DNA of 64,000 bases from Bacteroidales bacterium (GTDB lineage: Bacteria; Bacteroidota; Bacteroidia; Bacteroidales; UBA932), in NCBI GenBank assembly GCA_036677745.1, contig JAVBVW010000005.1, positions 307,268 to 371,267 of the forward strand, written 5' to 3'. Positions 49,164 to 64,000 of the stretch are shown here, in pieces. Under the pieces are notes generated by a model. The model searched no databases, was not told the origin of the DNA, and saw nothing but the letters and a program-made list of their open reading frames with translations. The position numbers and the translations under genes are program-made. The first letter of the stretch is position 1. Every line of letters begins with the position of its first letter.

Positions 49164-50318
49164 ATGATGAACCTTAACAGTATTTCTTTGTCTGAGACCA
49201 ATGTTGTTACATCTACAATATCTCATGAACTTAACACTCCCCTTAATGCAATTATCGGGTTCACCGACCTTATTCTTGAGGAGGATTCAATTGATGATAT
49301 AAGAGGATATGCTACCATTATAAAGAACAATAGTTCGTTGCTTCTCGAAAAAATTAAAAAGATAATTTCGCTTAATTCACTTGACTTCGAAAATGAAGTC
49401 TATCTGGAGGAGGTGAGTATCTCTGTTCTGGTTGAAAAATCACAGGACATTATTGAAAAAGAGTTCAGCAAGAATAAAAGGATGTTCAGTATAAGCTGTA
49501 ATACATCTGAAGAAGATCAAAAGATTACAATATTCTCAGATAAAGTAAAGCTGGAAAAATTTCTGAGCCATCTGTTGTTTAGTGCTTTCTATCTCAACAA
49601 AGAGGGTCAGGTGTTCATTTCTTTTAATGTGGTTCATAAAGACGGATTTAAAGAGGCTCTTCAGGTGATGGTTTCAGAAGAGAAGATTAAAAATTTCAAT
49701 GAACTGGAGCGAGGTTTCGAAGAGAATATTGATGATGTTGTGTCAACCATGAAGTTCGAAGATGGAATAGGCATCAATCTGGCTATTTGCCACAAAATAT
49801 CTAAAAAGATAGGTGGACACATGTATCTTAAAATCAATAGTAACAATAAGATTATTGCATTTGAACTTCCTGTTGGGAATCTATATGGTACAGATGCCCA
49901 TTCAGAGAATGACATACAGGTACTTATTGTTGAGGATGAGCCTTTAAGTTCGGCCCCCTTTAACAGAGTGATTTCTGAGTACCCATTTACTGTAATAAGA
50001 ACTTCTTCAAACGGATTTTTGGCAGGTGCTGCAGAGAGGTTGGCCAGAACTGACATTGTTGTTATAAATGAAGATATGAAGGGAGACCAGTTAAAAAGAA
50101 CTATGGAAAATCTTCTGAAAAGAGATCCCAAAGTTCTATTTCTTCTGGAAGATTCCTGTTTTAAACCCGAAAATAATTTGTCTCTGCACCACAATAATTT
50201 CTTTCACTACTGCAAAAATTCCACAACCGGTATGATAGAACAAATAATTGACAACATAATCGAATATAAAAACAACGAAAGTAGTAATTCATATACACAA
50301 AGAATAAATGCGCTTTAA
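49164..50318 (+). CDS. Soluble histidine-kinase-like protein with degenerate ATPase and receiver-like domains
   Basis: 384 aa. The H-box is intact (STISHELNTPLNAIIGFTDLI). In the ATPase region the N-box Asn and G1 DxGxG are not recognisable, and only a G2-like GIGINLAICHKI remains. The C-terminal receiver-like segment (IQVLIVEDEP… TDIVVINEDMKG) lacks a clear phospho-acceptor Asp context. There is no sensor or TM domain. Confidence 0.7.
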   Translation: MMNLNSISLSETNVVTSTISHELNTPLNAIIGFTDLILEEDSIDDIRGYATIIKNNSSLLLEKIKKIISLNSLDFENEVYLEEVSISVLVEKSQDIIEKEFSKNKRMFSISCNTSEEDQKITIFSDKVKLEKFLSHLLFSAFYLNKEGQVFISFNVVHKDGFKEALQVMVSEEKIKNFNELERGFEENIDDVVSTMKFEDGIGINLAICHKISKKIGGHMYLKINSNNKIIAFELPVGNLYGTDAHSENDIQVLIVEDEPLSSAPFNRVISEYPFTVIRTSSNGFLAGAAERLARTDIVVINEDMKGDQLKRTMENLLKRDPKVLFLLEDSCFKPENNLSLHHNNFFHYCKNSTTGMIEQIIDNIIEYKNNESSNSYTQRINAL

Positions 50319-51828
50319 ATCAAACATATATAAAATTTTCGGGCTGCTTGTTTTATTTATGGCCTTCTCTGTGCAGGTTAGCTCTCAAAGCATTCTTCAT
50401 CCCGGTATAGTATTCGATCTGCGATTTTCAAACGGCTCGAATGTACTTGAGATGAATTATGAAGATAATCGCTACGAGATATCTGGCCTAAACGAATTTA
50501 TTTCCTACAACAGAAATACAATTCTGAGCAGAAGATCGCACCTTGCCATTATTGCGTTTATGAGAGAAGATCAGAAAGAAAATCTCTACTCGGTTAACAG
50601 AGCATCTGTGCTTGGGAGTGTGGTCAGATCATATCTTAAGATCAGGCATGGTTTAAATAACTCTAATTTTACTTTTATAATACGTACAGACAAAACCGCA
50701 TCCAATCTTGTTAAAATTGAGTACAGACCATACTCTGTAAAGCCATATGAAAATCAGGATATATTCTACACTTTAAAGCCATCGTACAAAGAGCTGATTT
50801 TTGCATTAGCAAGTTACAGAGAGATTCCTTTTGAAGCCGTGAAAGAAGAAAATTCATTTGAGGTTTTCAACGGCGAAGAGACTCAAAATATTGAAAGCGG
50901 AAACATCGGGAGCGAAGATCTTGAAAGATTTGAAGAGCTGTTAAAAAGGGTTAAGGAGTTGGAAAGCCTTGGTAACAAAGAGTCCGGAATTGTAAGCCAG
51001 TCTCAGAAACCGGTTGATAATAGTGTAAATCACTCTTTTCAAAAAAATACAGAGATTTCAGTTCAGGCAGCGGCAGCATCATCAATTCAGGCAGCGGCAG
51101 CATCAGTTCAAACAGAGGTTAAGGAGTCCGCTCAAACAGAAGTAAAAGAGTCTGCTCAAACAGAAGTAAAAGAGTCTGTTCAAACAGAGGGGAAAAAATC
51201 AGCTCAAACAGAGTTAAAAGAATCAGTTCAGGCAAAAACAAGTAAGTCGTCTCAAAAAGCTATTTATAGTCCTGTAGTTGCTCTTAAAACAAACCTTCTT
51301 GGATTAGCCGGATTAACTCCTCCTGCTAAAATAACCGATCCTATCTTTAATATTTCAGCTGAATTCTTTTTTGCTAACAGATTTTCGATTATTGCAGAGG
51401 GCTTTAAATCTCCCTTGGCCGATAAAACTGACGCAAATTCTGAGGAGTGGTTTAAAACCAGTGGTCTGGTGGTGGAGAGCAGAGTTTATCTGGGCAAAGC
51501 TAAAACTTACAAAGGTTTCTATGGAGGTATTTATGGTTTGTTTGGTGATTTTGACATCAGAGATTTATCTGTGGACGAAAAGGGCAAAACAGGAAGCTTT
51601 ACAGGAGCGGGCCTGAGTATTGGATATGCAATTCCTCTCTATAAAGGACTTACTCTTGAGGCAGGATTAAGAGCAGGATACAGAGGCGATAAGTTTGATA
51701 CATACATTGTTAATGAGGGGAGTTTTTATATTTCGGAATCTCTGACTAACAGTGAATTCGGCCTTACATCATATAATTTGAACTTAACTTACAGATTTGG
51801 GAGTTATAAACGACCCGGGGAAAGATGA
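50308..51828 (+). CDS. DUF3575-type outer-membrane beta-barrel protein with N-terminal domain and repeat linker
   Basis: 506 aa with a signal peptide (…VQVSSQ), an unrecognised N-terminal ~200-aa domain and a QTEVKESA-type repeat tract. The C-terminal ~190 aa match the DUF3575 pattern (ALKTNLLGLA… ending LNLTYRFG). It overlaps the upstream gene by 11 nt. Confidence 0.72.
   Translation: MRFKSNIYKIFGLLVLFMAFSVQVSSQSILHPGIVFDLRFSNGSNVLEMNYEDNRYEISGLNEFISYNRNTILSRRSHLAIIAFMREDQKENLYSVNRASVLGSVVRSYLKIRHGLNNSNFTFIIRTDKTASNLVKIEYRPYSVKPYENQDIFYTLKPSYKELIFALASYREIPFEAVKEENSFEVFNGEETQNIESGNIGSEDLERFEELLKRVKELESLGNKESGIVSQSQKPVDNSVNHSFQKNTEISVQAAAASSIQAAAASVQTEVKESAQTEVKESAQTEVKESVQTEGKKSAQTELKESVQAKTSKSSQKAIYSPVVALKTNLLGLAGLTPPAKITDPIFNISAEFFFANRFSIIAEGFKSPLADKTDANSEEWFKTSGLVVESRVYLGKAKTYKGFYGGIYGLFGDFDIRDLSVDEKGKTGSFTGAGLSIGYAIPLYKGLTLEAGLRAGYRGDKFDTYIVNEGSFYISESLTNSEFGLTSYNLNLTYRFGSYKRPGER
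51061..51225 (+). repeat. In-frame coding tandem repeats (2 x ~21-24 bp, then 5 x 24 bp)
   Basis: (g/a)ttcaggcagcggcagcatca occurs twice. Then G(T/C)TCAAACAGA(G/A)GT(T/A)AA(G/A)GAGTC(C/T) units occur at 51106, 51130, 51154, 51178 and 51202, encoding (A/V)QTEVKES x5. Confidence 0.9.
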
Positions 51829-52682
51829 AGTTAAATATCTGTATATACTTTTTTATCTGTGTTGCATTCGTTTACGGTTGCAGCAAACGTGACGTTTTTG
51901 CCCCGGTATGGCATAAATACACTGTAGAGGTAAAGTATAATACGGAGGCTGACAGTACAAAGAGCAAGAGTACAAATGTTTATAAAACATATGTATACTC
52001 CGGAGATACCCTCGTAAGAATAAAGAGCTCTGTAAAAGAGAAGGATACTCTACATATTCCTGTAGGAAGCTATAATTTTATCACAGTGAACCTCGCAGCA
52101 ACAGGGGTTAAGCTGGGAAACATGGATACATTCAGGGAGGCAAGCCTTTTGCTAAACTCAGACGGAGCATTGGCAGCCTCTGTTAATCCACTAAGAGATG
52201 TGTTCACATCTACTGTTTCACAATACTATGTGATGCCAAACTCACCAAATGTTCTCAACATAAATCTGGTTAATCAAGTAAAAAACATAGAATATCAACT
52301 TGTTATAGAAGGGGCGAAGGATTCTTTGGAAAGATGTATCATTACTCAACACGGAGTTTCAAAGGGATTCCTGTTTCATAATAACAGATTAATTTTTGAC
52401 AATGTCAACAAAACATCGGTATCTGCAGAGGCATCCAGCACAAATAACTTTACAGGTACATTCTCTCTCCTTGGAGTTGATCCGGAAAAAAAGGAGCTGG
52501 AAATAAACTTTGTTTACAATAATAAGAAGGTGCAAAATACTACACTCGAAATCAACAACCTTCAGGACGAATACCTCTTCTCAAAAAAACTGGTCATTTA
52601 TATTGATATCTCAAGGGTAAATATGGAGCTTAATGCCTCCGTTAAATCATGGATAGTTGTACAGGATAAAATTGATATTTAG
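51825..52682 (+). CDS. Type V pilus lipoprotein, possible FimB/Mfa2-like anchor subunit
   Basis: 285 aa with a lipobox (…FVYGCS). Its size, its position directly after the DUF3575 gene, and the 'HIPVGSYNFITVN' style motif resemble Mfa2-family anchors. The assignment is tentative. Confidence 0.5.
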   Translation: MKLNICIYFFICVAFVYGCSKRDVFAPVWHKYTVEVKYNTEADSTKSKSTNVYKTYVYSGDTLVRIKSSVKEKDTLHIPVGSYNFITVNLAATGVKLGNMDTFREASLLLNSDGALAASVNPLRDVFTSTVSQYYVMPNSPNVLNINLVNQVKNIEYQLVIEGAKDSLERCIITQHGVSKGFLFHNNRLIFDNVNKTSVSAEASSTNNFTGTFSLLGVDPEKKELEINFVYNNKKVQNTTLEINNLQDEYLFSKKLVIYIDISRVNMELNASVKSWIVVQDKIDI

Positions 52683-52695
52683 TTAGGGATAATTA

Positions 52696-53577
52696 ATGCT
52701 AAAGAGAATTATATATATTGCTGTTTTACTCACAACACTTGGCTGCACCAAGGTTTTTGAGGAGGCTTTCAACATCTCAAAAGTTGAATTCACAGTTGGT
52801 AAAGTTATAGATTCCGGAGTACCCGAAAACCAAAACAGCTATCAGGAAGATTTTCTTACAGGAGTATTCGTTTATGAGGAGGGGGTATATCAGGGCAGCG
52901 GATATAAGGGAGTGCCTGTAGTGCAAAATATGCAGTTTAAAAACTCATCTGGCATTCTGGATGGAGACAATTTATATCTGGACAAGAAAAAAAGTTATAA
53001 AATATATTCTTATGCTCCCTATACCGGAGATAACAAGATAAATGGGGAATCAATTGAGTTTAATCATGGAACAGATGTTATCCACGCTGTTGCAAGATAT
53101 TCAAGCAATAATCAAGCAGAGATTATAAACAAGATACAACTGGATTATGAACATCTGACTTCTAAAGTAAAATTTGTTTTCGAAGATAACAGAGATCCGG
53201 TTTTGAAGAATCTCTATGATTTTAACAGAAAGAGTTTTAAAATCAATGGATTCAGCAGAAAATATTCCCTGAATGTATTTACAGGTAAATTAACAAGAGG
53301 TCAGATAGATCTACAGGTTACAATTACAGAAGAGAATAGTCCTGTTTGTTTCGCACCCGGGACAAATGGAACAGAGCTTAATCTAGAGCTGATTATACCT
53401 GCAGCTGCTACAAATCTGCCTCCTGTCACAATAAATGAAAAATTCATGTACAACTTCAGGCCGGGCCACTCATATGAAATTACCATAAACATTAAAACCG
53501 AGGAGATGTCCTTTAACAGCCACATTGTTAGTTGGGAATACAAAGCGGTTGAAGATCTTGAAATAGAAACAAAATAA
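52696..53577 (+). CDS. Fimbrillin-family (Mfa-like) lipoprotein
   Basis: 293 aa with a lipobox (…TTLGCT) and the motif LDYEHLTSKVKFVF (the 'x-H-x-hydrophobic-x-K/Q-hydrophobic-x-F' strand typical of fimbrillin-like proteins). Confidence 0.62.
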   Translation: MLKRIIYIAVLLTTLGCTKVFEEAFNISKVEFTVGKVIDSGVPENQNSYQEDFLTGVFVYEEGVYQGSGYKGVPVVQNMQFKNSSGILDGDNLYLDKKKSYKIYSYAPYTGDNKINGESIEFNHGTDVIHAVARYSSNNQAEIINKIQLDYEHLTSKVKFVFEDNRDPVLKNLYDFNRKSFKINGFSRKYSLNVFTGKLTRGQIDLQVTITEENSPVCFAPGTNGTELNLELIIPAAATNLPPVTINEKFMYNFRPGHSYEITINIKTEEMSFNSHIVSWEYKAVEDLEIETK

Positions 53578-53581
53578 TAAT

Positions 53582-54613
53582 ATGATGAAAAAAACATTAA
53601 TTGCGTTATTAATAGGGGTAACACTTATCAACTCCTGTAGCAAGGTAGACTTGATGTCGGGAGGTCAGACTCCTGCAGATCCAAAAGGGCCTGTTGTGTT
53701 AAAAGTAAAAACACCACTCCTTATGCATGCAGAGACTAAATCAATAATTCAGGGCAACACCTTTCCCATTGGTGCTAAAATGGGGGTACAGCTTTTAAAG
53801 TATGAAGATGATGCTGTTTACTCTCAATCAGGGATAGCCAATAATGAATACTCTTATATTGGTGGAGGAGTGTGGAATTCTGCTTCAGGGTATATTCTAA
53901 GCTCATCAAAAGCAAAGGTTTACGCCTACTATCCCTATGTGTCGTTGACCGATAATAGCCAGAAATTTTTAACAGTTCCAATTTCGGTAGATAAACAGAC
54001 TGAATCTGAAGATTATATGTATGCGACTCCGGTAGTTAATCTGGCAGATGTTGTATCTAATGCCAACAGCACAATTACCCTTAATATGAATCATGCTCTG
54101 GCCCAGATTTCAATACTTGTATATAAAGAGAATTACGGTGGTTTGGGTGAGCTGAGCGAATTTTCAATCGAAGATGCAGGGGTGACAAACCATATTATAG
54201 TAAACAAAGATTCTAACAATGATCTTGTTATGGATATTACTGACGGAACTGTTTCCGGAGGTCAAAAAGGAAAAATCACAAGAGTTCTGACTCCCAACCC
54301 TGTCATTCTTAAGAATTCTAGCCTAGATCCGGAGTATCCTTCCTCAATCCTTGCGACTCTTAAAAATCAGGTAAATTCAGATGGAGTATCTACCATAATA
54401 GTTCCAACAGGATTGATTCAACCGGGAGATCTTACCTTTTCGTTTGTAATAGATGGTAATACATACAGTATTAATAACGGGTCTCAAGTAACATTTGAAA
54501 AAGGAAAACAATACATATACAAAGTTAAACTTGCCGGAACCTCACTGACAGTCTCTTCTGTAACCATTACAGAGTGGACGCCTGTATCGGGAGAAGATAT
54601 GGTTATTCAATAA
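53582..54613 (+). CDS. Fimbrillin-family (Mfa-like) lipoprotein
   Basis: 343 aa with a lipobox (…LINSCS), a candidate maturation site AETK|S, and LNMNHALAQISILVY. It is a paralog of 54624..55628 and of the N-termini of 55660.. and 58410... Confidence 0.7.
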   Translation: MMKKTLIALLIGVTLINSCSKVDLMSGGQTPADPKGPVVLKVKTPLLMHAETKSIIQGNTFPIGAKMGVQLLKYEDDAVYSQSGIANNEYSYIGGGVWNSASGYILSSSKAKVYAYYPYVSLTDNSQKFLTVPISVDKQTESEDYMYATPVVNLADVVSNANSTITLNMNHALAQISILVYKENYGGLGELSEFSIEDAGVTNHIIVNKDSNNDLVMDITDGTVSGGQKGKITRVLTPNPVILKNSSLDPEYPSSILATLKNQVNSDGVSTIIVPTGLIQPGDLTFSFVIDGNTYSINNGSQVTFEKGKQYIYKVKLAGTSLTVSSVTITEWTPVSGEDMVIQ

Positions 54614-54623
54614 TCTTACAGCT

Positions 54624-55628
54624 ATGAAAAAGACAATTACAATCTCAATCCTCGCTCTTGCACTACTTTCGGGTTGCACAAAAAACAAATTTCTATCTAC
54701 CGAAAGACTGGCTCCAATCTCATTAACTCCAAATTTCGCAGTGCCTGCAACAAAGGCGCTTATTAGTGATGCTAATATTGAAAGTGAAACCATCCGGGTG
54801 CAAGTTTCAAAAAATGACGGAATTACAAGTTATGTTGACGGTGGGGCAAAATACACTTTAACTCACGGTGGTATCAACTGGGCATTATCAAACATTCTCT
54901 ATCTTTCAGTAGAAAACGCGAAGGTGTTCGCCTATGCACCAACCCCCGCTGACCCTACATCAGAGGAGACAGGAGAGTATAACACATTGAAAAGAAGACT
55001 TGATATTCCTGCCACACAAAATATGACAGATCAGGTTGACTACCTTTGGTGCTATCAGGATAAAACCAACGACACAGACGGGATCAACATAAACAGCACA
55101 AATCCTAATGTTGCATTGACAATGAAGCACGCTTTGGCTCAGGTCTCTTTTGTTATTTATGGAGAGAACTACAACGGTGCAGGTGTAATAAACACAATTA
55201 AAATAAAGGATAACACAGCAACATCGTCGCTTACCAAGATGCTTGACGCCGGTAATGATCTTTATCTGAATATAGCTAACGGCTCTATTTCGGGTGGTGA
55301 GCCTGTTGCGGAGATTGTAGCAACCAATATAAACGGAGCAATAGAGACAACTCAGCCAACAGCCGATCTTACAGAATTAAAATCAAAAGTAAACGGTTAC
55401 CTTTTACTTGTTCCTGTCTCTATAGCAGATAAGACTAAAGTTCAGTTCTCATTTAACATAGACGGGAAAGATTACAACGTCTCTTTAACGGGAGCAGGTG
55501 GAGTCAACTGGCTTGCAGGACAGCAGTATATATATACTGTAAAACTTTCAGGTACTCAGATGAGCGTAATAAGCGTTGCAGTGACACCTTGGACATCTAG
55601 TCACGAGGGTGAAGTGGTGATTAATTAA
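54624..55628 (+). CDS. Fimbrillin-family (Mfa-like) lipoprotein
   Basis: 334 aa with a lipobox (…LLSGCT), a candidate maturation site PATK|A, and LTMKHALAQVSFVIY. Confidence 0.7.
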   Translation: MKKTITISILALALLSGCTKNKFLSTERLAPISLTPNFAVPATKALISDANIESETIRVQVSKNDGITSYVDGGAKYTLTHGGINWALSNILYLSVENAKVFAYAPTPADPTSEETGEYNTLKRRLDIPATQNMTDQVDYLWCYQDKTNDTDGININSTNPNVALTMKHALAQVSFVIYGENYNGAGVINTIKIKDNTATSSLTKMLDAGNDLYLNIANGSISGGEPVAEIVATNINGAIETTQPTADLTELKSKVNGYLLLVPVSIADKTKVQFSFNIDGKDYNVSLTGAGGVNWLAGQQYIYTVKLSGTQMSVISVAVTPWTSSHEGEVVIN

Positions 55629-55659
55629 TAAAAAATTAAACGAAAACCGGAATCCAGTT

Positions 55660-57303
55660 GTGAAGTTTTGTCTTAACATATTTGCTGTTGCGCTAATTCT
55701 TGTATTAAACTCCTGCTCAAAAGAGAGGATTATAATCAAGGAGGGGTCTGCTCTGCACATATCTCCGGCAATTAACGGAATGACCAAATCTTTGGTTGAT
55801 GACAGCAATGTCTCAACCAAAGAGATTGGTGTTCAGATAACAGATCAGGCCGGTACTCAACTTTATGACGGTAATTCGCAATATAGCAATCTAAGACTCA
55901 TCAAACCTGCTGATTCGTGGATCTTTGACGATGGAGCAGGAGACTCCAGAGATGTGCTTTTAAATGCGGATAATGCAAAAATATATGCCTACTACCCTTA
56001 CACTTCTGATCCGGCCGTTTTTACAGGAACCTCAGATGGGGCAGTCCTTATGGCAGATATTCCGCAATCACACTCTTATGGTTATGTACAGGATTATTTG
56101 TGGAGTGCACAGGATAAAACATTACCAACAGGTGGTTTGCCAATAAATTCAACAAGTTCATCTGTCCAGCTAAAGATGAACCATGCTCTTGCAATGGTTG
56201 CATTTGTCTTTTATAAATCGGGATACGAAGGCACAGGGAATATAACTGCAATGGAAATGAAGAGTTTATCAGTCACAAATGTTTTCAGTGTAAATAAAAC
56301 CGGAATCAACGATCTTAGAATGAAGCTTTCTAACGGAGCTTTCGAAGGAGGCTCAATGGTTCCGAATTTGATTCTCACAGATATAAACTCTAATATAGCC
56401 CTCACTGCCGATCCGGGAACTGATCCTCAGACTCTGTTTAACATAAGAAATTTTCATATGTTGTTGATACCGGCAAGTATCGCAGCAAGAGAGGATATAG
56501 AATTCAGTTTTGATATTGACGGCAGTAATTACAAGGTTGGATTTCCAGGGTCAGGAGCTCTTAATATGACAGCAGGAAATATAAATATTATTACTGTTAA
56601 GCTTAGTCCAAAATCTCTTAGCATTACTGGGGTGGCAACCTGGAATCTGGTTGAATATGAGGTAGGAAGTGGTTATCAGGATATATGGGGTGGCTTTACA
56701 CCTCAGACAATAAACGGAGTTACCTGGGCTCCGGTTAATGCCGGATATGATGGAACTCATTTGCATGGTCTTATTTACCAGTGGCATAGGAAGTACGGGC
56801 AAAATTATAACGAATCTCCGGCACCAACATCGGTTCAAGGTCCTGTTAGTTTGCAAGTTGCAAATGATGAGTTGAATAAAAGTAATTTTTACATCAGCAC
56901 TTCAGGTGACTATGATTGCATAACACCGCAACAATCTGCATGGAGCATGACCTCTGATTTTAACCCGTGTCCTGCAGGATGGAGGGTGCCTACTGCTGCA
57001 GAATTTCAGTCACTTATAAGTTCTGGTTATACATATGTTGATGTTGGACTAAATAACCAACGGGGTTATTGGTTTGGCGGACGTCACAATACAGATCGTG
57101 TTGGAAGTATATTTATTTCATTATCAGGCTACAGAAGGGGGTCAGACTCATCACCGATTAACAGGAATATCACTGGTTATTACTGGACTATGGATTCAGA
57201 TCTTATAAATGCAAGAATGCTTCAGATGAACTCATCTACTGTACAAATGAATTCATGGAGCAGGGCAAATGGTTTTAGTGTCAGATGTGTTAAAGAATTA
57301 TAA
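55660..57303 (+). CDS. Fimbrillin-like lipoprotein fused to one C-terminal FISUMP (Fibrobacter succinogenes major paralogous) domain
   Basis: 547 aa with a GTG start and a lipobox (…VLNSCS). The N-terminal ~330 aa are fimbrillin-like (LKMNHALAMVAFVFY). The C-terminus has INGVTWAPVNAGY…LIYQWHRKYGQ…CPAGWRVPTAAEFQSL…GYYWT…ANGFSVRCVKEL. Confidence 0.78.
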   Translation: MKFCLNIFAVALILVLNSCSKERIIIKEGSALHISPAINGMTKSLVDDSNVSTKEIGVQITDQAGTQLYDGNSQYSNLRLIKPADSWIFDDGAGDSRDVLLNADNAKIYAYYPYTSDPAVFTGTSDGAVLMADIPQSHSYGYVQDYLWSAQDKTLPTGGLPINSTSSSVQLKMNHALAMVAFVFYKSGYEGTGNITAMEMKSLSVTNVFSVNKTGINDLRMKLSNGAFEGGSMVPNLILTDINSNIALTADPGTDPQTLFNIRNFHMLLIPASIAAREDIEFSFDIDGSNYKVGFPGSGALNMTAGNINIITVKLSPKSLSITGVATWNLVEYEVGSGYQDIWGGFTPQTINGVTWAPVNAGYDGTHLHGLIYQWHRKYGQNYNESPAPTSVQGPVSLQVANDELNKSNFYISTSGDYDCITPQQSAWSMTSDFNPCPAGWRVPTAAEFQSLISSGYTYVDVGLNNQRGYWFGGRHNTDRVGSIFISLSGYRRGSDSSPINRNITGYYWTMDSDLINARMLQMNSSTVQMNSWSRANGFSVRCVKEL

Positions 57304-57309
57304 TAAGAG

Positions 57310-58383
57310 ATGAAAAATTTTCTGAATTCGTTGTTAATAGTGGTTGTTTTAGCCGTGGGGTGTTCAAAGGAGAACCTAAATACGACAAAGAATAGCACTG
57401 CGGAGGTTAATTTTTCTCTTATTCCGGTTGAATTTGGTGCACCGTTAACTCGGGCCGGAGTATTGGCAGACGAGAATACAATAAAAGATTTATGGATTTT
57501 ACAATTTGATGGTACTGCAGAAAACTCGCTCTTAATCAAGTCAGAATATATAACAGGAATAACAGATCCCGCCAATACACAGATTGTACTTAATCAAGGA
57601 GTAAATCACAGGGTAATTTTCATTGCAAACACCTTTGATCCTCTCCTTTTTGATGGTACAAATGCTCCGCTAAATACATATACATACTCCCAATTCAAAG
57701 GCAAAACAATATCTCTGGCAACTGAATCAGACATTTTTACCGGAAGCGGTACAAGCTATCTGAGAATGTACGGGTTATATGAGGGAGATCTTCCAAACAA
57801 GAGCGAATCTGTATTGTTATACCGAATATGTGCCAAAATAAATTTAACCTATACCTCCGAAGATGTTAGCTCTGTTACAGATGGTGTAAGGTTTAAGATA
57901 AACTCAGTACAGTTAAAAAATGTACCAACTACATACTCTTATATCTCTAATCCATCAAATGATATAGTTTTAACTCCGGCTTCTGTAACAGATTATCCGG
58001 TTACATCGGGATCGTTAACGGGGGCTGCCGGAGAGGCCTATAATATTGGAGATTACAGCGGTTATGTTACTTATTATTTCCCCGAAAATATTGCCGGGAT
58101 CAATAGCTCGGTTACATCACAGTTTAAAAAATCATTGTATGCTCCCGCAAAAGCAACATGGCTTGAAATAAAGGGTGAGGGTATTGGAAATGACGGAAGG
58201 TTAAATGAATATGCCACATTTAAATTCTATTTAGGGAATAACCTCACCGATAACTACAATGTAAATTCAAACACATCATATAATATTTCCATCAGATTTA
58301 AAGGGGTAGATGTAGCGGATATGAGGATGGAGGTTATCAGAATTTCTGATATCGAAATTTTTCAGGAAGAGGAGTGGTTATAA
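57310..58383 (+). CDS. FimA/Mfa1-like pilin lipoprotein (candidate stalk subunit)
   Basis: 357 aa with a lipobox (…LAVGCS), a canonical-looking maturation site PLTR|AG, DLWILQFDG, LYRICAKINLTY, and FKINSVQLKNVP motifs as seen in FimA/DUF4906-type pilins. Confidence 0.6.
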   Translation: MKNFLNSLLIVVVLAVGCSKENLNTTKNSTAEVNFSLIPVEFGAPLTRAGVLADENTIKDLWILQFDGTAENSLLIKSEYITGITDPANTQIVLNQGVNHRVIFIANTFDPLLFDGTNAPLNTYTYSQFKGKTISLATESDIFTGSGTSYLRMYGLYEGDLPNKSESVLLYRICAKINLTYTSEDVSSVTDGVRFKINSVQLKNVPTTYSYISNPSNDIVLTPASVTDYPVTSGSLTGAAGEAYNIGDYSGYVTYYFPENIAGINSSVTSQFKKSLYAPAKATWLEIKGEGIGNDGRLNEYATFKFYLGNNLTDNYNVNSNTSYNISIRFKGVDVADMRMEVIRISDIEIFQEEEWL

Positions 58384-58409
58384 CCTGTTTTTAAGCAGAT
58401 CGGATCATT

Positions 58410-60941
58410 ATGAAAAAGACTACAATATTATTCAAAACTATTATTTTTCTTGTATTAACATTTATTACAATCTCTTCATGTATAAAAGAGAAATATGATA
58501 AACCGATATTGAATAATGATGGAAGTATTCCTTTTATATGTGAGGGGAATGAGCCCAAAACCAAGACTACATTAAACGGGCTAACCACCAGTTGGATTGC
58601 AAACAGCGATAAAGTCGGCCTTTTTTCTCCACAGGCAACTACAGTTGCAGGCGGAGCAGCCGGGGTTGTTAATATACCCCTTACGGCACAAAACAACGGA
58701 GAGAGAGTTCAATTCAGCGGAACAGTTTTTTGGGGATCGGGCGAGCATGACTTCTACTCCTACTATCCATACACAGCAGGATCGCCCGAATATACAGCAG
58801 TTCCTGTTTCACTGCCAGCCGATCAATCTCAATTAAACGGAGATAACAGCGATCACCTCGGATCATTGGATTTTCTTATAGCAAAGCCATATAAGGCTAA
58901 ATTTCCGGGAAACTATTCAGACGGAGCAACCGTATCTTTAAAATACAGTCACCTTTTTGCAATATTAGAGTTTCAGATAATCAGGAGTTCAGGTACAGAT
59001 GCAATATCAAAAGTAAAACTAATAGGTAAAGTGCCCCTTGCTTTTGGGAGCGGCACGATAGATCTGTCACAAAGCACACCGGCCTCGGGTGTTTCCTATG
59101 TAATTGATGGAATGTCAAATACCTCCAACTCTGTTACAGTATCTCTGGGTACTGCCATAACCCCCACCACAGACTATTCTACAACCCCAAAGGTTTATAT
59201 GGTTGTTTTACCCGGCACACATGTTGGCGATTTAAAAATTGGGGTAGAAAGTGCAGGGGTTTTTAAAGAGGTTAAAAAAACAGATGCAACTTTTGAAAGA
59301 GGTAAAAAATATATTGTAAAAGTTGATGCCGATATGGCATCAATACCGGTGATAACGGGAAGTGAACTTGAGCCGGTTACTATAGATGGAACGACATGGA
59401 TGCCGGTAAATGCAGGTTACAGACAAGATCTTACGATGGGTGAATATTTTCAATGGTTCAGAAAATATGGATTCGGGCAACAACCGGAAATTATGCTGGC
59501 CAACGAAACATTATGGAACGATGATCTTGACCAGGAGACATCAATGGACAAATACAAAAATGTCTTTTTTAAATCCAAGGGTTCAGGATTTGACTGGATG
59601 CCTTGTTATCAAGCTGCATGGAATCTTACTGAAAAATTTAATCCTTGTCCGGCAGGCTGGAGGCTTCCTACCAAAGATGAGGCAACAACGCTCATCTCTT
59701 ACGGGAGCACAAGCATTCCTACTCAAAATGCCGGAGGCGTTGATGGTTTGGTTGGCAGATGGATAGGCCCAAATCATGATAATCCCGATCTTAGAACAAC
59801 AACTGCAGTTTTCTTTCCATATACCGGTATGATGTCATATAGTAACGGGTTGTTACCAAGTAGCTTTAGTGTTGGCTATTACTGGCTGGCCTATTATGGA
59901 GAACCGTCAACATTATATAATGGTCAGATGATGAGTGTAAATCAAAATCAAAGCACAAATCCAAACACTTCTCTTATGAATAAAGCTTACGGATTGTCTG
60001 TCAGGTGCGTAAAAAGAGAGTCTTCTGTTGAGCCCTTGCTCCATACAACAAAACCTGTGGATGTGCAGGAGGGGTTAGTTACATCGGGCGGATATATAGA
60101 AGAAGAGGGCTCTCTGCCGATTACCGAAAGAGGAGTTTTCTATGGAACCGCATCATTTCCTTCTTCAACCAATGTGGTTGCATCAACTGCGGGTTCGGGC
60201 TCCTTTACGGCTGATATTACGGGATTAGAGGAGTTAAAAACATACTATGTAAGAGCTTATGCCAAAAATTCTGCAGGAACAGTCTATTATGGTGATCAGT
60301 ATAAGTTTATTAAGAAAAATCCTGACAACTACAACGGAGAAGAGGTTACTATAAGCGGCGTTACTTGGGCTCCCTATAATGCCGGATACAGCGATCTATA
60401 TCCGTATGGTCTTTTATATCAGTGGCACAGAAAATACGGACAGACATACACAGGAGAAACACCGGCACCAACATTTTCATCAAGTGCGACTACTCTTTCT
60501 ACAGCATCTGGTTTTATAAATAAAAACAGGTTCTATTATAAAACCACCTCTCCATACGACTGTATCTCTCCTCAGCAAGCTTCATGGAATATGGACAGAA
60601 TGTATAACCCGTGTCCGGATGGTTGGAGAGTTCCTACAGATGCAGAGTTCCAGCTACTTATAGATTCAGGCAATTCTTGGGGGACAGGCCCCGGAGGTAT
60701 ACCCGGTATATGGTTTGGTGAAAATCATTCAGGTTCAAAAGAGGGTTGTGTATTTCTTCCTGCTTCTGGTTTCAGGGATCATACAGCTACAACGAATTTA
60801 AGAGATACGTGCGGACTATACTGGACATCATCAATAAATTCCATCAGTGCCAATGCACTAATTTTTTCCAGCGATAATACACCTGCTATCTCTGCTAGAT
60901 ATAGGGCGTCTGCAAATTCAGTAAGATGTGTAAAAGAGTAG
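58410..60941 (+). CDS. Fimbrillin-like lipoprotein with two FISUMP domains separated by an Ig/Fn3-like module
   Basis: 843 aa with a lipobox (…ISSCI) and a fimbrillin-like N-terminus (LKYSHLFAILEFQII). FISUMP domain 1 runs IDGTTWMPVNAGY…CPAGWRLPT…YGLSVRCVKRE. A middle module ends …YYVRAYAKNSAGTVYYGDQYKF. FISUMP domain 2 runs ISGVTWAPYNAGY…LLYQWHRKYGQ…CPDGWRVPT…ANSVRCVKE. Confidence 0.78.
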   Translation: MKKTTILFKTIIFLVLTFITISSCIKEKYDKPILNNDGSIPFICEGNEPKTKTTLNGLTTSWIANSDKVGLFSPQATTVAGGAAGVVNIPLTAQNNGERVQFSGTVFWGSGEHDFYSYYPYTAGSPEYTAVPVSLPADQSQLNGDNSDHLGSLDFLIAKPYKAKFPGNYSDGATVSLKYSHLFAILEFQIIRSSGTDAISKVKLIGKVPLAFGSGTIDLSQSTPASGVSYVIDGMSNTSNSVTVSLGTAITPTTDYSTTPKVYMVVLPGTHVGDLKIGVESAGVFKEVKKTDATFERGKKYIVKVDADMASIPVITGSELEPVTIDGTTWMPVNAGYRQDLTMGEYFQWFRKYGFGQQPEIMLANETLWNDDLDQETSMDKYKNVFFKSKGSGFDWMPCYQAAWNLTEKFNPCPAGWRLPTKDEATTLISYGSTSIPTQNAGGVDGLVGRWIGPNHDNPDLRTTTAVFFPYTGMMSYSNGLLPSSFSVGYYWLAYYGEPSTLYNGQMMSVNQNQSTNPNTSLMNKAYGLSVRCVKRESSVEPLLHTTKPVDVQEGLVTSGGYIEEEGSLPITERGVFYGTASFPSSTNVVASTAGSGSFTADITGLEELKTYYVRAYAKNSAGTVYYGDQYKFIKKNPDNYNGEEVTISGVTWAPYNAGYSDLYPYGLLYQWHRKYGQTYTGETPAPTFSSSATTLSTASGFINKNRFYYKTTSPYDCISPQQASWNMDRMYNPCPDGWRVPTDAEFQLLIDSGNSWGTGPGGIPGIWFGENHSGSKEGCVFLPASGFRDHTATTNLRDTCGLYWTSSINSISANALIFSSDNTPAISARYRASANSVRCVKE

Positions 60942-60956
60942 TAAGGTAATAATTGA

Positions 60957-61601
60957 GTGTTAATGATAAGACGAGCATATATAAAAACCGGGCTTCTGAT
61001 TGTGATTTTACTCACTTGCGGGCAGATTTATTCCCAAAACCAAAGCGGAGTGTTTTCGGCAGAGGTTACAGGCGGACCGGTATTTGCTGTGGGGGAGACA
61101 GGAGGGAACAGGCTAAAATATGGTAGGGGATTAGACGCTGTTTTAGCTGTTAATGTTTTTGCAAATACCGGCCTTTTTGGTGGATGGAGTGTAAACAGTT
61201 ATACGTCTGACGGGGTATTCAGTTACCGTGAATCAGGGTTAATATATGGCTTGCAGTTCACGATTAATCCAAAAGAGAGCATATATAAGATAGTTATCAG
61301 AGGCGGTGGGTTTTGGAGCAATCTGGATATTACAGGATCTGACAACACCTATGCCGCCGGGTACTCTTTTAATTCTGACTGGAAAAATGGTGCTCTTTTG
61401 TCAGCGATATTGTTGCGCTCTTTGGGTAAAGAGTGGTATATAAGTGGCAAATTTGACTATCGGCTCAGTATCTCCAGAGTAATATTACCGGAGATAATAT
61501 GGTCTGACGGAACGTCAGAATCACAGACTTATGTATTAATGCCACGCAACCTTTACCTTAACCAGGCAGGAATAAAATTTGGCATAGTTAAGACGTTTTA
61601 A
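60957..61601 (+). CDS. Small outer-membrane beta-barrel protein (paralog 1)
   Basis: 214 aa with a signal peptide (…QIYSQ), alternating beta-strand pattern and a C-terminal …GIKFGIVKTF (terminal Phe). The start is the GTG at 60957 or the ATG at 60963. Confidence 0.6.
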   Translation: MLMIRRAYIKTGLLIVILLTCGQIYSQNQSGVFSAEVTGGPVFAVGETGGNRLKYGRGLDAVLAVNVFANTGLFGGWSVNSYTSDGVFSYRESGLIYGLQFTINPKESIYKIVIRGGGFWSNLDITGSDNTYAAGYSFNSDWKNGALLSAILLRSLGKEWYISGKFDYRLSISRVILPEIIWSDGTSESQTYVLMPRNLYLNQAGIKFGIVKTF

Positions 61602-61695: not shown

Positions 61696-61703
61696 TAATT
61701 TTG
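61696..61703 (+). promoter_or_regulatory. Candidate -7 box (TAATTTTG) for the second barrel gene
   Basis: TAnnTTTG ending 21 nt upstream of the ATG at 61725. Confidence 0.4.
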
Positions 61704-61724
61704 CGCCTCCAAATTAATATAGTT

Positions 61725-62351
61725 ATGAATTTCAAAAAAGTAATTTTAATTGCAGCAATAAGCCTGATAGCTTTATCCGGTTTTTCTCAGGAGGCTGGCA
61801 TAGCTAAAAAAACTAACAGGAGATTTTCAGTAGAGCTAGGTGGCGGAAGCTCTTTTGCAATCGGGAAACCAGCTGGATTTAAGCTAAGCAGTGGTATGGG
61901 TAGTGACGGAGTTATCGGATATACTGCCTATAAAAACTTTGGCCTTTTTGCAGGCTGGGGCTTCAATATGTTTGAGAGTGACTACTTCGACTTTGAGGAG
62001 ACAGGATACATGTATGGTATTCAGTACAGAAATTCATTTAAAGAGAGTAAATTTTCTTATACGTTAAGAGTAGGTGCTCTTTACAACCATATAGAGGTTG
62101 AGGGTGCTCACGATTCGTATTTCGATGGCTTCTATTCCGACAGCGGACATGGCCTTGGATTCCACACATCGGCTTCATTACAGTACAGTCTTGGTAAAGG
62201 ATGGGCGATCAACGGAAATGTCAAATTTCATCAACTGAAGAGAGATGTCCAATTGGAGGAGTCTGAGCTTCTTCCGGAACCGGATCAGACAGATTATTCA
62301 TTCAACCTTAAATATATTGGTCTGAGAATAGGAATTGTTAAGAATTTTTAA
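61725..62351 (+). CDS. Small outer-membrane beta-barrel protein (paralog 2)
   Basis: The ATG at 61725 gives MNFKKVILIAAISLIALSGFSQ. The C-terminus is …GLRIGIVKNF. It shares the GGG..FA.G…GLFAGWG/GLFGGWS pattern with paralog 1. The TTG start at 61701 is rejected because it lies inside the -7 box. Confidence 0.6.
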   Translation: MNFKKVILIAAISLIALSGFSQEAGIAKKTNRRFSVELGGGSSFAIGKPAGFKLSSGMGSDGVIGYTAYKNFGLFAGWGFNMFESDYFDFEETGYMYGIQYRNSFKESKFSYTLRVGALYNHIEVEGAHDSYFDGFYSDSGHGLGFHTSASLQYSLGKGWAINGNVKFHQLKRDVQLEESELLPEPDQTDYSFNLKYIGLRIGIVKNF

Positions 62352-62380: not shown

Positions 62381-63442
62381 TTGTTTAAGCGTGACTATTT
62401 CAGACCCTTTTCAGCCAGGAGCATTTTTATGCTTCTGGTTGCTTTGTCGTTTATAATCCAGCTGATTGTAGTATCATATAACCATTACACCGGGTATCAC
62501 TTAATCCGCTCGTGGTATGAAGTTCTGGTCAGAATAACAATAAGTACCGGAATAAGTACAATTGCAGGATTGGTAATTGTACTGATGAATCTGGCTTGTA
62601 TAAGGCTACTTAACAGGAATTTTCCGTGGTCTTCCAAGGCTCTTAAAAGAGGGGTGTTTCAAATGTCATTCACAATTCTTTCGGGAGTGATTATTTCACT
62701 AGTTGCCACATTTGTATCCAATAATTACATACATGCATACGAAGAGGAATTTTCCGGTGTAATCATTATTAATGCAATTCTCTTTGCTGTTGCCAATGTT
62801 TTATTAATGACAATACTTGAGGGCTGGATGTTTTTTAATGAAAACAAAAAGACCAATTTGGTTACGGGTAATCTTAAGTATGAATTAAGTCAGGTTAAAT
62901 TCGATATACTCAAAAATCAGATAAATCCCCACTTTATGTTTAATAGCCTGAATGTTCTTTCGGGGTTGATTAAAAAGGATATTTCTAAGGCGCAGTTATT
63001 TATCGAAGATTTCTCAAGTGTATACAGATATGTTGCTGAGACAATAGAGAGACCTCTTGTTACTCTTAAAATGGAGCTGGAATTTGTTGAAAGTTATCTT
63101 TATCTGCAAAAAATCAGGTATGGAGATATGTTACAGTATAAAGCAGATCTGCCCGAAAAATTTATGGATTATCAACTTCCTCCTCTCTCTTTGCAGGTCA
63201 TACTGGAAAATGCCATTAAACATAATATCGTAAGTGTTTCAGAGAGCCTGATGATTGAGATATTAATTAAGGACGAAAATCTTGTTATAAAAAATAAGAT
63301 CACACCAAAAAAATCATACGAAATATCAACAGGAACAGGACTAAGCAATCTTACCAAAAGGTATGCTTTTGTATGTAACAAGCACCCCGAATTTGTAAAA
63401 TCTGAGGGGTATTTCATCGCCAGATTACCACTAATAAATTAA
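62381..63442 (+). CDS. LytS/YehU-type sensor histidine kinase
   Basis: 353 aa with four to five N-terminal TM helices, the His_kinase motif QINPHFMFNSLNVL, and an ATPase N-box LQVILENAIKHN plus GTGLSNL. Confidence 0.85.
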   Translation: MFKRDYFRPFSARSIFMLLVALSFIIQLIVVSYNHYTGYHLIRSWYEVLVRITISTGISTIAGLVIVLMNLACIRLLNRNFPWSSKALKRGVFQMSFTILSGVIISLVATFVSNNYIHAYEEEFSGVIIINAILFAVANVLLMTILEGWMFFNENKKTNLVTGNLKYELSQVKFDILKNQINPHFMFNSLNVLSGLIKKDISKAQLFIEDFSSVYRYVAETIERPLVTLKMELEFVESYLYLQKIRYGDMLQYKADLPEKFMDYQLPPLSLQVILENAIKHNIVSVSESLMIEILIKDENLVIKNKITPKKSYEISTGTGLSNLTKRYAFVCNKHPEFVKSEGYFIARLPLIN

Positions 63443-63447
63443 AAATC

Positions 63448-64000
63448 ATGAAAGTACTTATTATTGAAGATGAGGTTTTAGCGGCAGAGAGGCTTGAGGA
63501 GATGTTACACGAAATAGATCCGTCTATTAATGTTGCTGCTAAAACAGGCTCAATAACTGAATCAGTTCAGTGGCTAAAAAGCAATATTGCAGATCTTATT
63601 TTTCTGGATATTCAGCTCTCTGATGGGTTGAGTTTTACGATATTTGATGAGGTCAAGATTACTACCCCTATTATATTCACAACAACATATGATCAGTATG
63701 CAATAAAGGCATTCGAACTTAATAGTGTTGCATATCTGCTCAAACCCATAAGTCAGAAAAGGCTGGCTGAGAGCATACAGAAATTTAAATCTCTTAAAAC
63801 AGCATTTGCCATAGATTTGTCGGCACTGTCACAAATGATAGGCAATAAAGAGAGTCGTTATAAAGAGAGGTTGCTAATACAGATAGGGCCGAATTACAAA
63901 AAGGTAGATGTTACAGAGATCGCCTATTTCTACGCCACTGATGCAGGAATATATGTAAGAACATTTAACGGGAACTCATACCCGATTGATTTTCCCCTTG
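63448..64000 (+). CDS. LytTR-family response regulator (3' end beyond window)
   Basis: The open frame from the ATG at 63448 reads MKVLIIEDEVLAAERLEEML… DLIFLDIQLSDG…FTTTYDQYAIKAFELNSVAYLLKP (receiver domain) and then enters a LytTR-like region. It is not in the ORF track because no stop falls within the window. Confidence 0.85.
   Translation, partial: MKVLIIEDEVLAAERLEEMLHEIDPSINVAAKTGSITESVQWLKSNIADLIFLDIQLSDGLSFTIFDEVKITTPIIFTTTYDQYAIKAFELNSVAYLLKPISQKRLAESIQKFKSLKTAFAIDLSALSQMIGNKESRYKERLLIQIGPNYKKVDVTEIAYFYATDAGIYVRTFNGNSYPIDFPL

Follow-up and report, generated by a model that had tools for sequence, protein, structure and literature searches.

The window analyzed here is a 64,000-nucleotide (nt) stretch of contig JAVBVW010000005.1 from a Bacteroidales bacterium, and the region in question (positions 55660 to 60941 of the window) carries two genes, designated g6 and g8, whose products combine a predicted type V (FimA/Mfa-type) pilin module with C-terminal copies of the Fibrobacter succinogenes major paralogous (FISUMP) domain, hereafter called heads. 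Both belong to a unit of nine co-oriented genes, g1 to g9. An original prediction, made from the nucleotide sequence, had proposed for both proteins a ligand-binding role at the tip of the pilus.

Domain organization of the g6 and g8 proteins

The features of the two genes are as follows (residue numbers refer to the encoded proteins, and an arrow marks a putative cleavage site).

55660..57303, + strand: g6, 547 amino acids, GTG start, Mfa_like_1 plus one Fib_succ_major
55660..55788, + strand: g6 residues 1-43, signal peptide, lipobox Cys19, and anchor strand to Lys43 (putative protease site TK↓S)
55789..56649, + strand: g6 residues 44-330, predicted two-domain type V pilin module
56641..56694, + strand: g6 residues 328-345, conserved junction at the position of the terminal donor strand of g5
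56686..57300, + strand: g6 residues 343-547, FISUMP head with predicted C-type-lectin-like fold; variable segment 501-537 precedes the SVRCVK end
58410..60941, + strand: g8, 843 amino acids, Mfa_like_1 plus two Fib_succ_major
58410..59357, + strand: g8 residues 1-316, signal peptide, Cys24, Lys52 (KTK↓T), and pilin module
59361..60020, + strand: g8 residues 318-537, FISUMP head 1, the most divergent copy; variable segment 486-527
60021..60338, + strand: g8 residues 538-643, fibronectin type III (FN3) spacer separating both heads
60339..60938, + strand: g8 residues 644-843, FISUMP head 2, closest to the g6 head (46% identity); variable segment 798-834

The assignment made in the original prediction, namely one FISUMP copy in the protein encoded at 55660..57303 and two in that encoded at 58410..60941, each on a pilin-like lipoprotein, was borne out by the matches to TIGR02145 and Mfa_like_1 and by the lipobox Cys residues. 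In the hidden Markov model search with TIGR02145 that had been suggested as a check, g6 scored 42.9 bits, barely over the cut-off of 41.65, and g8 scored 63.8 bits over two stretches; in a six-frame search of the genome, the g8 heads taken singly scored 35.0 and 34.9 bits, under the cut-off. When each head alone was scanned with Pfam Fib_succ_major (PF09603, gathering threshold 33.9 bits), scores of 36.7 (g6), 45.4 (g8 head 1), and 38.2 bits (g8 head 2) were obtained. The head motifs quoted in the prediction are present and conserved, and the Cys residues of NPCP and VRCVK were invariant across the three heads and their homologs. FISUMP proteins are typically extracytoplasmic lipoproteins with conserved cysteines (PMC5758913), and the lipobox Cys and conserved head cysteines of g6 and g8 agree with this family trait. 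The genome as a whole (2.27 Mb, 93% complete) yielded seven TIGR02145 matches in six proteins, three of them on pilins; the pilin heads scored 34.9-45.2 bits versus 93-133 bits for the other four copies, and the pilin-borne heads are divergent FISUMP members.

Pfam Mfa_like_1 (cut-off 27 bits) matched residues 51-324 of g6 with 48.5 bits and residues 59-316 of g8 with 76.5 bits, and neither protein had sequence relatives in the PDB at E ≤ 0.01. AlphaFold modelling of g6, for which 31 homologs were used, gave a predicted local distance difference test (pLDDT) score of 82 and a structure of two parts linked by a low-confidence segment (residues 331-341, pLDDT below 50). By VIA-align, residues 28-331 aligned to 4QB7 (BvuFim1C; Z 18.4, root-mean-square deviation (rmsd) 3.6, 261 residues aligned), 4K4K (Z 17.2), and 3SY6 (Z 16.9), with Mfa1-4 and FimA also among the matches, and Foldseek concurred on type V pilins (E 2e-13 to 8e-11). 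As modelled, the N-terminal part of g6 is composed of two consecutive β-sandwich (transthyretin-like) domains, the build by which type V pilins are recognized. The closest paralog of this module was that of g5 (36% identity, E 4e-55), and Cys19 and Lys43 were invariant among 31 aligned sequences. At the boundary with the head, g6 retains in the alignment a β14-like strand followed by an 18-residue segment exactly where the terminal strand of g5 lies; in orthologs this junction reads W-N-L-V-x-Y-E-V-S-S-G-Y-D-D-L-W-Y-G, and residues 331-342 had the lowest entropy in the protein (0.68 bits).

In g8, Cys24 and Lys52 were invariant among 21 aligned sequences, and the second pilin domain (residues 177-309) aligned to 3T2L (Z 10.8, rmsd 2.4, 117 aligned); the first domain is a putative pilin domain by its Pfam match. 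As had been expected, the N-terminal halves modelled as pilin folds, in g6 with both domains and in g8, where the modelling was confident, with the second domain only. The pilin module of g8 stops directly after its last core strand, leaving 11 residues to the head and no donor-strand region. The spacer between the two heads, previously described as Ig/Fn3-like, proved to be a true FN3 domain: residues 538-640 aligned to many FN3 domains by VIA-align (Z 9.2-10.8), and Foldseek returned 2IC2 and 8OS3 (TM-score 0.60), with the Pfam fn3 match sub-threshold (13.4 versus 25 bits). An NCBIfam arabinosidase match to the spacer (20.8 versus 600 bits) was disregarded. FN3 domains took up most of the VIA-align output for the g8 model, which speaks to the spacer and the second pilin domain; Foldseek on the whole g6 and g8 models gave pilins and FN3/multi-immunoglobulin proteins, and the head fold was isolated by VIA-align on g6.

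Predicted fold and chemistry of the heads

Residues 343-547 of g6, read from the model of the whole protein, aligned by VIA-align to the C-terminal domain (CTD) of Lcl from Legionella (8Q4E, Z 7.8), Mtd of a phage (1YU0, Z 7.8, 122 aligned), TvpA from Treponema (2Y3C, Z 7.7, 149 aligned), the Bd2740 tip from Bdellovibrio (8OKS, Z 7.4), and 5N40 (Z 7.2), and also to invasin InvE, PvdO, EgtB, paralogs of FGE, and animal C-type lectin-like domains, the group spanning Z 5.6-7.8, a range that by the program's own warning may reflect a common arrangement. These matches carry weight because about 25 consistent rows of one fold class covered approximately residues 340-547 and because the whole-protein Pfam scan found Lcl_C (formerly DUF1566) at the sequence level in g8 head 2 (35.5 bits, cut-off 34.9). 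A profile of the three heads searched against the PDB returned 8Q4E alone, at a non-significant E of 0.43, with which the later fold search agreed. The g6 head is modelled as a C-type-lectin-like fold of the Mtd/TvpA/Lcl_C (DUF1566) group, and the lectin/FGE-like fold that had been anticipated for it was indeed what the fold search returned.

Classical Ca-dependent C-type lectins carry EPN or QPD plus WND motifs for Ca and sugar binding. Neither EPN nor QPD occurs in the three heads, and the single WND lies in an insert of head 1; on this motif criterion, classical Ca-dependent C-type lectins were rejected as an identity for the heads. Their isoelectric points (pI 7.07, 4.94, and 5.92) are neutral to acidic. 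The ligand of such heads may be either a glycan or a protein.

Mtd, Lcl-CTD, and Bd2740 likewise have no Ca/sugar site according to the available portions of their descriptions (PMC11162425, PMC10769870). Lcl-CTD binds sulphated glycosaminoglycans via a basic surface (PMC11162425), and the accessible text of PMC10769870 presents Bd2740 as the C-lectin tip on a prey-recognition fibre and the upper face of Mtd as binding pertactin; for the Bd2740 tip, the accessible text names no ligand. The Fibrobacteres literature, as available in part, treats TIGR02145 as a putative cellulose-binding protein or cohesin analog, and the accessible parts of the literature on the FISUMP domain contained no experimental function, the domain being treated there as putative. 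The earlier statement that the domain has no established function is nevertheless incomplete, in that the domain belongs with the Lcl_C/DUF1566 and Mtd-type C-lectins, a group with known binding functions.

Predicted processing, assembly, and position in the pilus

In the available part of PMC13655056, stalk and base pilins of type V pili are described as requiring C-terminal donor strands, the C-terminus of the strand being essential, and tip and adaptor pilins as lacking them; the donor strand enters a groove that is opened in the preceding subunit by protease cleavage of the β1-β2 loop, and anchor pilins are without the cleavage site. A surface clostripain is named as the pilin-processing enzyme in the portion of a review available to us (PMC12632263). 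A TK↓S/A/T motif about 25 residues past the lipobox Cys is common to g6, g8, and the stalk-type pilins g4 and g5 encoded upstream of g6. With regard to the combination of a lipidated Cys and a basic site, g6 and g8 have the Cys and an invariant Lys, the published cleavage sites being Arg. The genome contains one Peptidase_C11 (clostripain-family) gene as a candidate for the processing protease, and a search for Peptidase_C25 gave no match in the genome, control genomes being equally silent.

On the type V model, g6 and g8 would be exported by Sec and lipidated at Cys19 or Cys24, transported to the cell surface, and cut past Lys43 or Lys52 by a surface protease, for which the C11 protease is a candidate. 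The freed groove would then take the C-terminal donor strand of g5 or g4, and the head-bearing subunit would start the fibre and come to lie at its far end: g8 as a terminal tip presenting two heads with the FN3 spacer between them, and g6, seemingly a duplicate of the stalk pilin g5 with a head added, as either an adaptor beneath the tip or an alternative tip. Finally, the heads would bind ligand through the surface of the last approximately 40 residues before the SVRCVK strand, the proposed surface being the one that is hypermutated by diversity-generating retroelements (DGRs) in related heads. The steps up to the filling of the groove follow the established type V model, and the ligand-binding step is what we infer.

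To probe the donor-strand pairing, mature g5 was modelled in complex with processed g6 (residues 44-340), and the prediction scored 0.54 (runs 0.49, 0.57, and 0.54) versus 0.00 for the best of three controls, with a contact agreement of at least 74% and a partner pLDDT of at least 84. Of 157 solved complexes, 116 reach the pass mark, as do 2 of 215 mismatched pairs, and scores of 0.60 or below comprise only 18 of the 157 solved complexes plus both mismatches that passed; the modelling lends weak support to the pairing of g5 with g6. Since g8 is without a donor-strand region and carries extra heads, it fits the definition of a tip (PMC13655056, PMC12632263) and only the terminal tip position is left for it, whereas g6 has the extra head but retains the conserved donor-like segment, so that tip and adaptor are both possible. 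A distal ligand-binding role is supported by the operon context, the conserved Lys site, and the placement of the head on the C-terminal end that stalk pilins need free. To this extent the tip role proposed originally stood; its treatment of both proteins alike did not, given the donor segment kept in g6. We infer a tip-adhesin role, with firm support in g8 and less in g6.

We estimate at about 70% the probability that the region is the portion of a type V (FimA/Mfa-type) pilus operon that encodes the distal adhesins, with g6 and g8 as pilins bearing C-type-lectin-like heads. Several points weigh against this reading. The cleavage, polymerisation, and tip position of g6 and g8 would all be carried over by analogy from the type V model; g6 keeps a conserved donor-strand-like segment that is needless in a pure tip; and polymers of FimA and Mfa1 have been solved, so that the weak g5-g6 pass may reflect likeness to them. 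The PDB sequence matches of g2 and g7 were at chance level, and no anchor pilin was identified. The g8 model (pLDDT 75) is poor in the first pilin domain, falling below 50 for residues 21-61 and 119-181, and the fold matches of the g6 head all stay under Z 8. The chemistry of the heads, with no EPN/QPD and a neutral-to-acidic pI, indicates neither classical Ca-dependent sugar binding nor an Lcl-like binding of polyanions.

The most serious alternative concerns g6, residues 328-345 of which could insert as a donor strand into g8 or another g6 with the head standing at the side, making g6 an adaptor or a head-decorated shaft subunit. Its paralogy with the stalk pilin g5 speaks for this arrangement, as do the β14-like strand and the 18-residue segment at the exact place of the terminal strand of g5. 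The segment is, moreover, the most conserved part of the protein and yet has a pLDDT below 50, as is expected of a strand that becomes ordered only within a partner. Headless g6 homologs occur at the same operon position (the L010 locus and the 341-residue proteins described below), and Mfa3 of Porphyromonas gingivalis, an accessory pilin with donor strands, is thought to link stalk to tip according to the available part of PMC13655056. However, a 200-residue domain comes after the donor-like segment in g6, an internal donor strand is not described in the type V pilus literature cited here, and the conservation of the segment could equally stem from packing between pilin and head. We regard the adaptor or decorated-shaft arrangement as unlikely, and it is similarly doubtful that an internal donor strand of g6 gives rise to a lectin tip complex with several heads (three in all, g8 and g6 taken together) or to a lectin-decorated shaft.

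Quite improbable, in our judgement, is that g6 and g8 are stand-alone surface lipoproteins, in which the pilin fold would serve as a mere stalk on the outer membrane or on vesicles without polymerisation. Polymerisation is assumed here by analogy with the type V model, FISUMP heads are mostly mounted on stalks other than pilins (Big_2 in 55, fn3 in 10, and BACON in 6 of the 149 proteins scanned below), and some related C-lectin proteins of Bacteroides, namely BovT and BfiT, are not incorporated into pili (bioRxiv 10.1101/2024.11.15.621889). Against this stand the invariant Lys site, the tight co-orientation with stalk-type pilins having free donor strands, in a layout kept across eight genomes, and the g5-g6 complex prediction, a weak pass; furthermore, BfrT, likewise a hybrid pilin of three domains, is exposed at the surface and cleaved at R43 (bioRxiv 10.1101/2024.11.15.621889). 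Distal adhesins of a type V pilus thus remain the preferred identity of g6 and g8.

Paralogy and variation of the heads

At the protein level, the g6 head is 46% identical to g8 head 2, and g8 head 1 is 33% and 31% identical to the other copies. The paralogy that the original prediction had called clear at the DNA level (around 56715 and 60358) is detectable, positions 56707-56747 and 60348-60388 being 83% identical over 41 nt, but it is weak: the best BLASTN stretch between the g6 head and head 2 of g8 was 72.7% over 128 nt, and those of the two remaining pairs reached about 72% over 62-81 nt. With longest exact matches of 9, 13, and 10 nt and an identity of 72-77% over at most 128 nt, the proposal that the copies offer substrates for recombination and adhesin variation was not sustained.

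Among orthologs, variability was highest, in each of the three heads, in the segment before SVRCVK that is equivalent to the variable region of DGR targets; the entropies of g6 501-537, g8 486-527, and g8 798-834 were 2.29, 2.14, and 2.14 bits versus 1.17 and 1.06 bits for the pilin modules, figures that quantify a pattern and do not constitute a blind test, the segment bounds having been chosen after the consensus lines had been viewed, a reservation to be added to those listed above. It is the C-terminal part of such heads that is hypermutated by DGRs, among others on type V tip adhesins of Bacteroides, as described in the accessible parts of PMC4159848, PMC5758913, and bioRxiv 10.1101/2024.11.15.621889.

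That the heads of g6 and g8 are DGR variable proteins, or owe their variation to recombination among their three paralogous copies, can be dismissed as extremely improbable: Fib_succ_major/DUF1566 heads are a recognised DGR target class in the available text of PMC4159848 and PMC5758913, DGRs do diversify type V tip adhesins in Bacteroides (bioRxiv 10.1101/2024.11.15.621889), and it is the equivalent segment that varies most, but the 93%-complete genome gave no RVT_1 (reverse transcriptase) match, the 3' segment of each head matched only itself genome-wide (other matches at most 35 nt) with no second copy as a template repeat, and the copies share only the short matches given above. Because neither a reverse transcriptase nor a template repeat was found in the 93%-complete genome, the heads are regarded as static, and the DGR candidate was rejected. 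Comparison of eight orthologous loci (L001-L008) and of L010, an additional locus of one of the same genomes, revealed gain and loss of genes at the 3' end of the operon and presence or absence of the head; the variation is attributed to ordinary divergence together with gain and loss of head-bearing genes, not to recombination between copies.

Operon layout and neighbouring genes

The unit in which g6 and g8 lie consists of the following genes.

50308..61601, + strand: g1-g9 pilus unit, co-oriented, intergenic gaps of -4 to 31 nt
50308..51828, + strand: g1, first gene of the operon, 506 amino acids, signal peptide without lipobox Cys, Pfam DUF3575 (61.7 bits)
51825..52682, + strand: g2, DUF5119 lipoprotein (Pfam DUF5119, 30.5 bits), syntenic in L001-L008
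52696..53577, + strand: g3, short Mfa_like_1 pilin lipoprotein, 293 amino acids (Pfam Mfa_like_1, 58.6 bits)
53582..54613, + strand: g4, stalk-type pilin (Mfa_like_1, 95.8 bits; PDB sequence match 3T2L, E 5.7e-7)
54624..55628, + strand: g5, stalk-type pilin (Mfa_like_1, 77.9 bits) with free C-terminal strand …PWTSSHEGEVVIN
57310..58383, + strand: g7, DUF4906 lipoprotein with TR↓A-type site (Pfam DUF4906, 55.7 bits)
60957..61601, + strand: g9, small secreted protein, 15 nt 3' of g8

The N-termini of g2 through g8 are all signal peptides ending in Cys. The C-terminus of g4 is free and donor-strand-like (…EWTPVSGEDMVIQ), and orthologs of g5 retain …G(E/D)V(V/L)IN at the extreme C-terminus. In the alignment, g3 is without the TK↓S-type motif common to g4, g5, g6, and g8. 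The reading frames of g1 and g2 overlap by 4 nt, and the position of g1 is kept in L001-L008. In the translation of g1, a low-complexity tandem repeat (…QTEVKESAQTEVKESAQTEVKESVQTEGKKSAQTELKESVQ…) occupies approximately residues 250-310, between the N-terminal part and the DUF3575 domain, and the match to g1 is broken in two around this repeat region in L001, L007, and L008.

A probable accessory pilus protein, g2 is also a candidate anchor, and g7, which by synteny lies between the homologs of g6 and g8 in L001-L008 and L010, is likewise a probable accessory pilus protein. The Pfam and NCBIfam scans gave no family match for g9, which is probably the last gene of the unit; its homologs lie 3' of g8-type genes in L003-L006, the L005 match ending at the edge of the locus. 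Scans for σ70 promoters (44 found versus 44.3 expected) and terminators (11 versus 8.8) remained at chance level and leave the operon ends undefined. Five of the seven Mfa_like_1 matches in the genome fall in the g1-g9 operon. The remaining two are adjacent at C1:177047-178578, in pilin open frames of 305 and 310 amino acids, a locus without a FISUMP match.

Several observations were made on the flanks of the unit. The product of the following gene, g10 (61701-62351, 216 amino acids), and g9 (214 amino acids) are alike, both ending in …GI(K/R)(F/I)GIVK(T/N)F and both without a Pfam or NCBIfam match, and the aromatic C-terminal residue, judged by eye, suggests outer-membrane β-barrels; homologs of g10 lie 3' of head-bearing pilin genes in L001-L004, L006, and L007. 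The upstream flank (49164-50318) encodes a histidine-kinase-like protein whose C-terminus is receiver-like and the downstream flank (62381-63999) a membrane sensor kinase and a response regulator, these labels having been given by eye from the translations; the products could be regulators of the pilus operon.

Homologs and distribution of the heads

The g6 family comprised 309 homologs at E ≤ 1e-5, some of them named 'fimbrillin family protein' (NCBI) or 'TIGR02145 family' (JGI), and PF13149 and PF09603 were both present in 45 of 120 among the matches listed, as counted by eye. The gene order g1-g8 was kept in all eight loci with a full-length g6 ortholog (L001-L008, from species-representative genomes; a contig end cuts g8 in L008). 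Their 3' ends vary, with one extra g8-type gene each in L003 and L004 and two in L005, some of these single-headed, and the orthologous operons hold two to four head-bearing genes. In L010 (positions 7373-8350), the g6 homolog at the same operon position is headless, matching residues 10-339 only and being followed directly by homologs of g7 and g8, and four clusters of 341-residue proteins (P0026 and P0033-P0035) end exactly at the pilin-head junction with …SGYPE; from these sequences, the head appears to be gained or lost as a unit.

Representative clusters of the FISUMP superfamily numbered 18,653 at E ≤ 1e-3, 4,105 at 1e-10, and 318 at 1e-30. The domain architectures of the best 150 FISUMP representatives were scanned at E ≤ 1e-5, one protein of more than 5000 amino acids being left out; among the 149 scanned, Fib_succ_major was found in 140, Lcl_C in 89, Big_2 in 55, Big-like domains in 34, Mfa_like_1 in 15, fn3 in 10, and BACON in 6. 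The survey of FISUMP-Mfa_like_1 fusions that had been called for thus found at least 15 of 149 close representatives to carry Mfa_like_1, a lower bound from a biased sample (P0032 has a precomputed PF13149 assignment and yet missed the threshold). Since it is mounted on several kinds of stalk, the pilin being one, the head can be viewed as a portable module.

The four other FISUMP proteins of the same genome are not pilins; one combines an astacin protease, FN3, and a head, another FN3 repeats and a head, and two are small proteins. The astacin protein (C1, L065:545-2293, - strand) is a lipoprotein of 582 amino acids with an astacin (M12A) metalloprotease, a sub-threshold FN3 match (21.3 versus 25 bits), and a FISUMP head (147.6 bits), and its head is predicted to serve as a targeting module for the enzyme. 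FISUMP-like heads with 26-34% identity to the g6 head were also seen on contigs assigned by binning to Paceibacterota, Saccharibacteria, Omnitrophota, and a Methanosarcinales archaeon (L030-L033, L040, L045, and L064), which may reflect either a wide distribution or a binning artefact.

Comparison with known systems

Among the closest known counterparts is BovFim1C (BACOVA_04982, PDB 4EPS), a static-headed type V tip pilin of Bacteroides ovatus (bioRxiv 10.1101/2024.11.15.621889), which Ye (2014) superimposed on TvpA according to the accessible text of PMC4159848. Like g6, it has a lipoprotein pilin module followed by a C-terminal C-lectin-type globular head, and it aligned to the g6 model over residues 28..547 (Z 9.3, 325 aligned; 640 Foldseek columns), so that the overall build of the two is alike. 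They differ in sequence, no similarity being found by phmmer against the PDB at E ≤ 0.01 and the identity in structural alignments being 12-14%, and in the relative orientation of the domains (rmsd 23); g8 differs further from BovFim1C by its two heads and FN3 spacer.

BfrT, BthT, and BunT are DGR-diversified type V tip adhesins of Bacteroides, encoded at the end of anchor/stalk pilin operons (Macadangdang et al., bioRxiv 10.1101/2024.11.15.621889). They share with g6 and g8 the signal peptide, the lipobox, and a basic residue, which is cleavable in these adhesins (R43 in BfrT) and a putative cleavage site in g6 and g8, and are hybrids of a stalk-like pilin, BvuFim1C-like as in g6, and a C-lectin head. 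Their heads are hypermutated by an adjacent cassette of reverse transcriptase, Avd, and template repeat, often on integrative and conjugative elements or prophages, whereas for g6 and g8 neither reverse transcriptase nor template repeat was found in the 93%-complete genome; in addition, the basic residue is Lys in g6 and g8 and Arg in the BfrT group, and the g6 and g8 heads match the Fib_succ_major model. A fusion like that of the original prediction is SRS014459.31157 from a stool metagenome, presented in the available part of PMC4159848 (Ye, 2014) as a lipoprotein of 807 amino acids, near g8 in size, with Mfa2 and a C-terminal Fib_succ_major; it is reported there as a DGR target, and its module is Mfa2 and not Mfa_like_1.

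Lcl-CTD (8Q4E), Bd2740 (8OKS), Mtd (1YU0), and TvpA (2Y3C) present a C-type-lectin-like fold distally on a fibre or stalk, as is predicted for the g6 head. Their heads form trimers on fibres that are themselves trimeric, a type V pilin being a single chain, and Lcl-CTD has no disulfides and a basic surface, in contrast to the conserved Cys residues (NPCP … VRCVK) and neutral-to-acidic character of the g6 and g8 heads. The FISUMP paralogs of Fibrobacter succinogenes match the same TIGR02145 model, Fibrobacteres having 17-119 copies per genome, in the portion of that literature available, versus the seven matches here. In P. gingivalis, the accessory genes for Mfa3, Mfa4, and Mfa5 lie downstream of the stalk gene, the tip subunits being without donor strands and the adaptor Mfa3 having them (available part of PMC13655056), and Mfa5 possesses an extra adhesive vWA domain (PMC7835359, accessible text), from which the extra domains of g6 and g8 differ; cleavage there is by Arg-gingipain, the putative site of g6 and g8 being Lys.

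Significance

Lectin-type heads on type V tip pilins have already been published, and g6 and g8 do not change the current picture. In the available parts of these sources, the precedents are an Mfa2 plus Fib_succ_major lipoprotein in 2014 (PMC4159848), fimbrial domains on DUF1566/Fib_succ_major DGR targets in 2018 (PMC5758913), C-lectin-headed type V tips, both static (BovFim1C) and diversified (BfrT, BthT, and BunT), in 2024 (bioRxiv 10.1101/2024.11.15.621889), and a textbook-level statement in a 2025 review (PMC12632263). Literature searches on the domain names and, separately, on C-type-lectin-tipped type V pili brought up no experiment with a FISUMP head borne by a pilin, and the accessible text of the review describes type V pilus ligands in Bacteroidota as still largely unknown (PMC12632263).

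The conserved internal donor-like segment of g6 is the point worth following: assembly through an internal donor strand and a multi-headed or decorated architecture would, if true, be features that the available portions of the type V pilus literature cited here do not describe. For the question of ligands, the operon offers a compact natural system, with a small genome, three diverged heads on defined scaffolds, and the headless counterpart in L010. As static counterparts to the DGR-diversified tip adhesins, g6 and g8 may also help to ask which positions of such heads set specificity.

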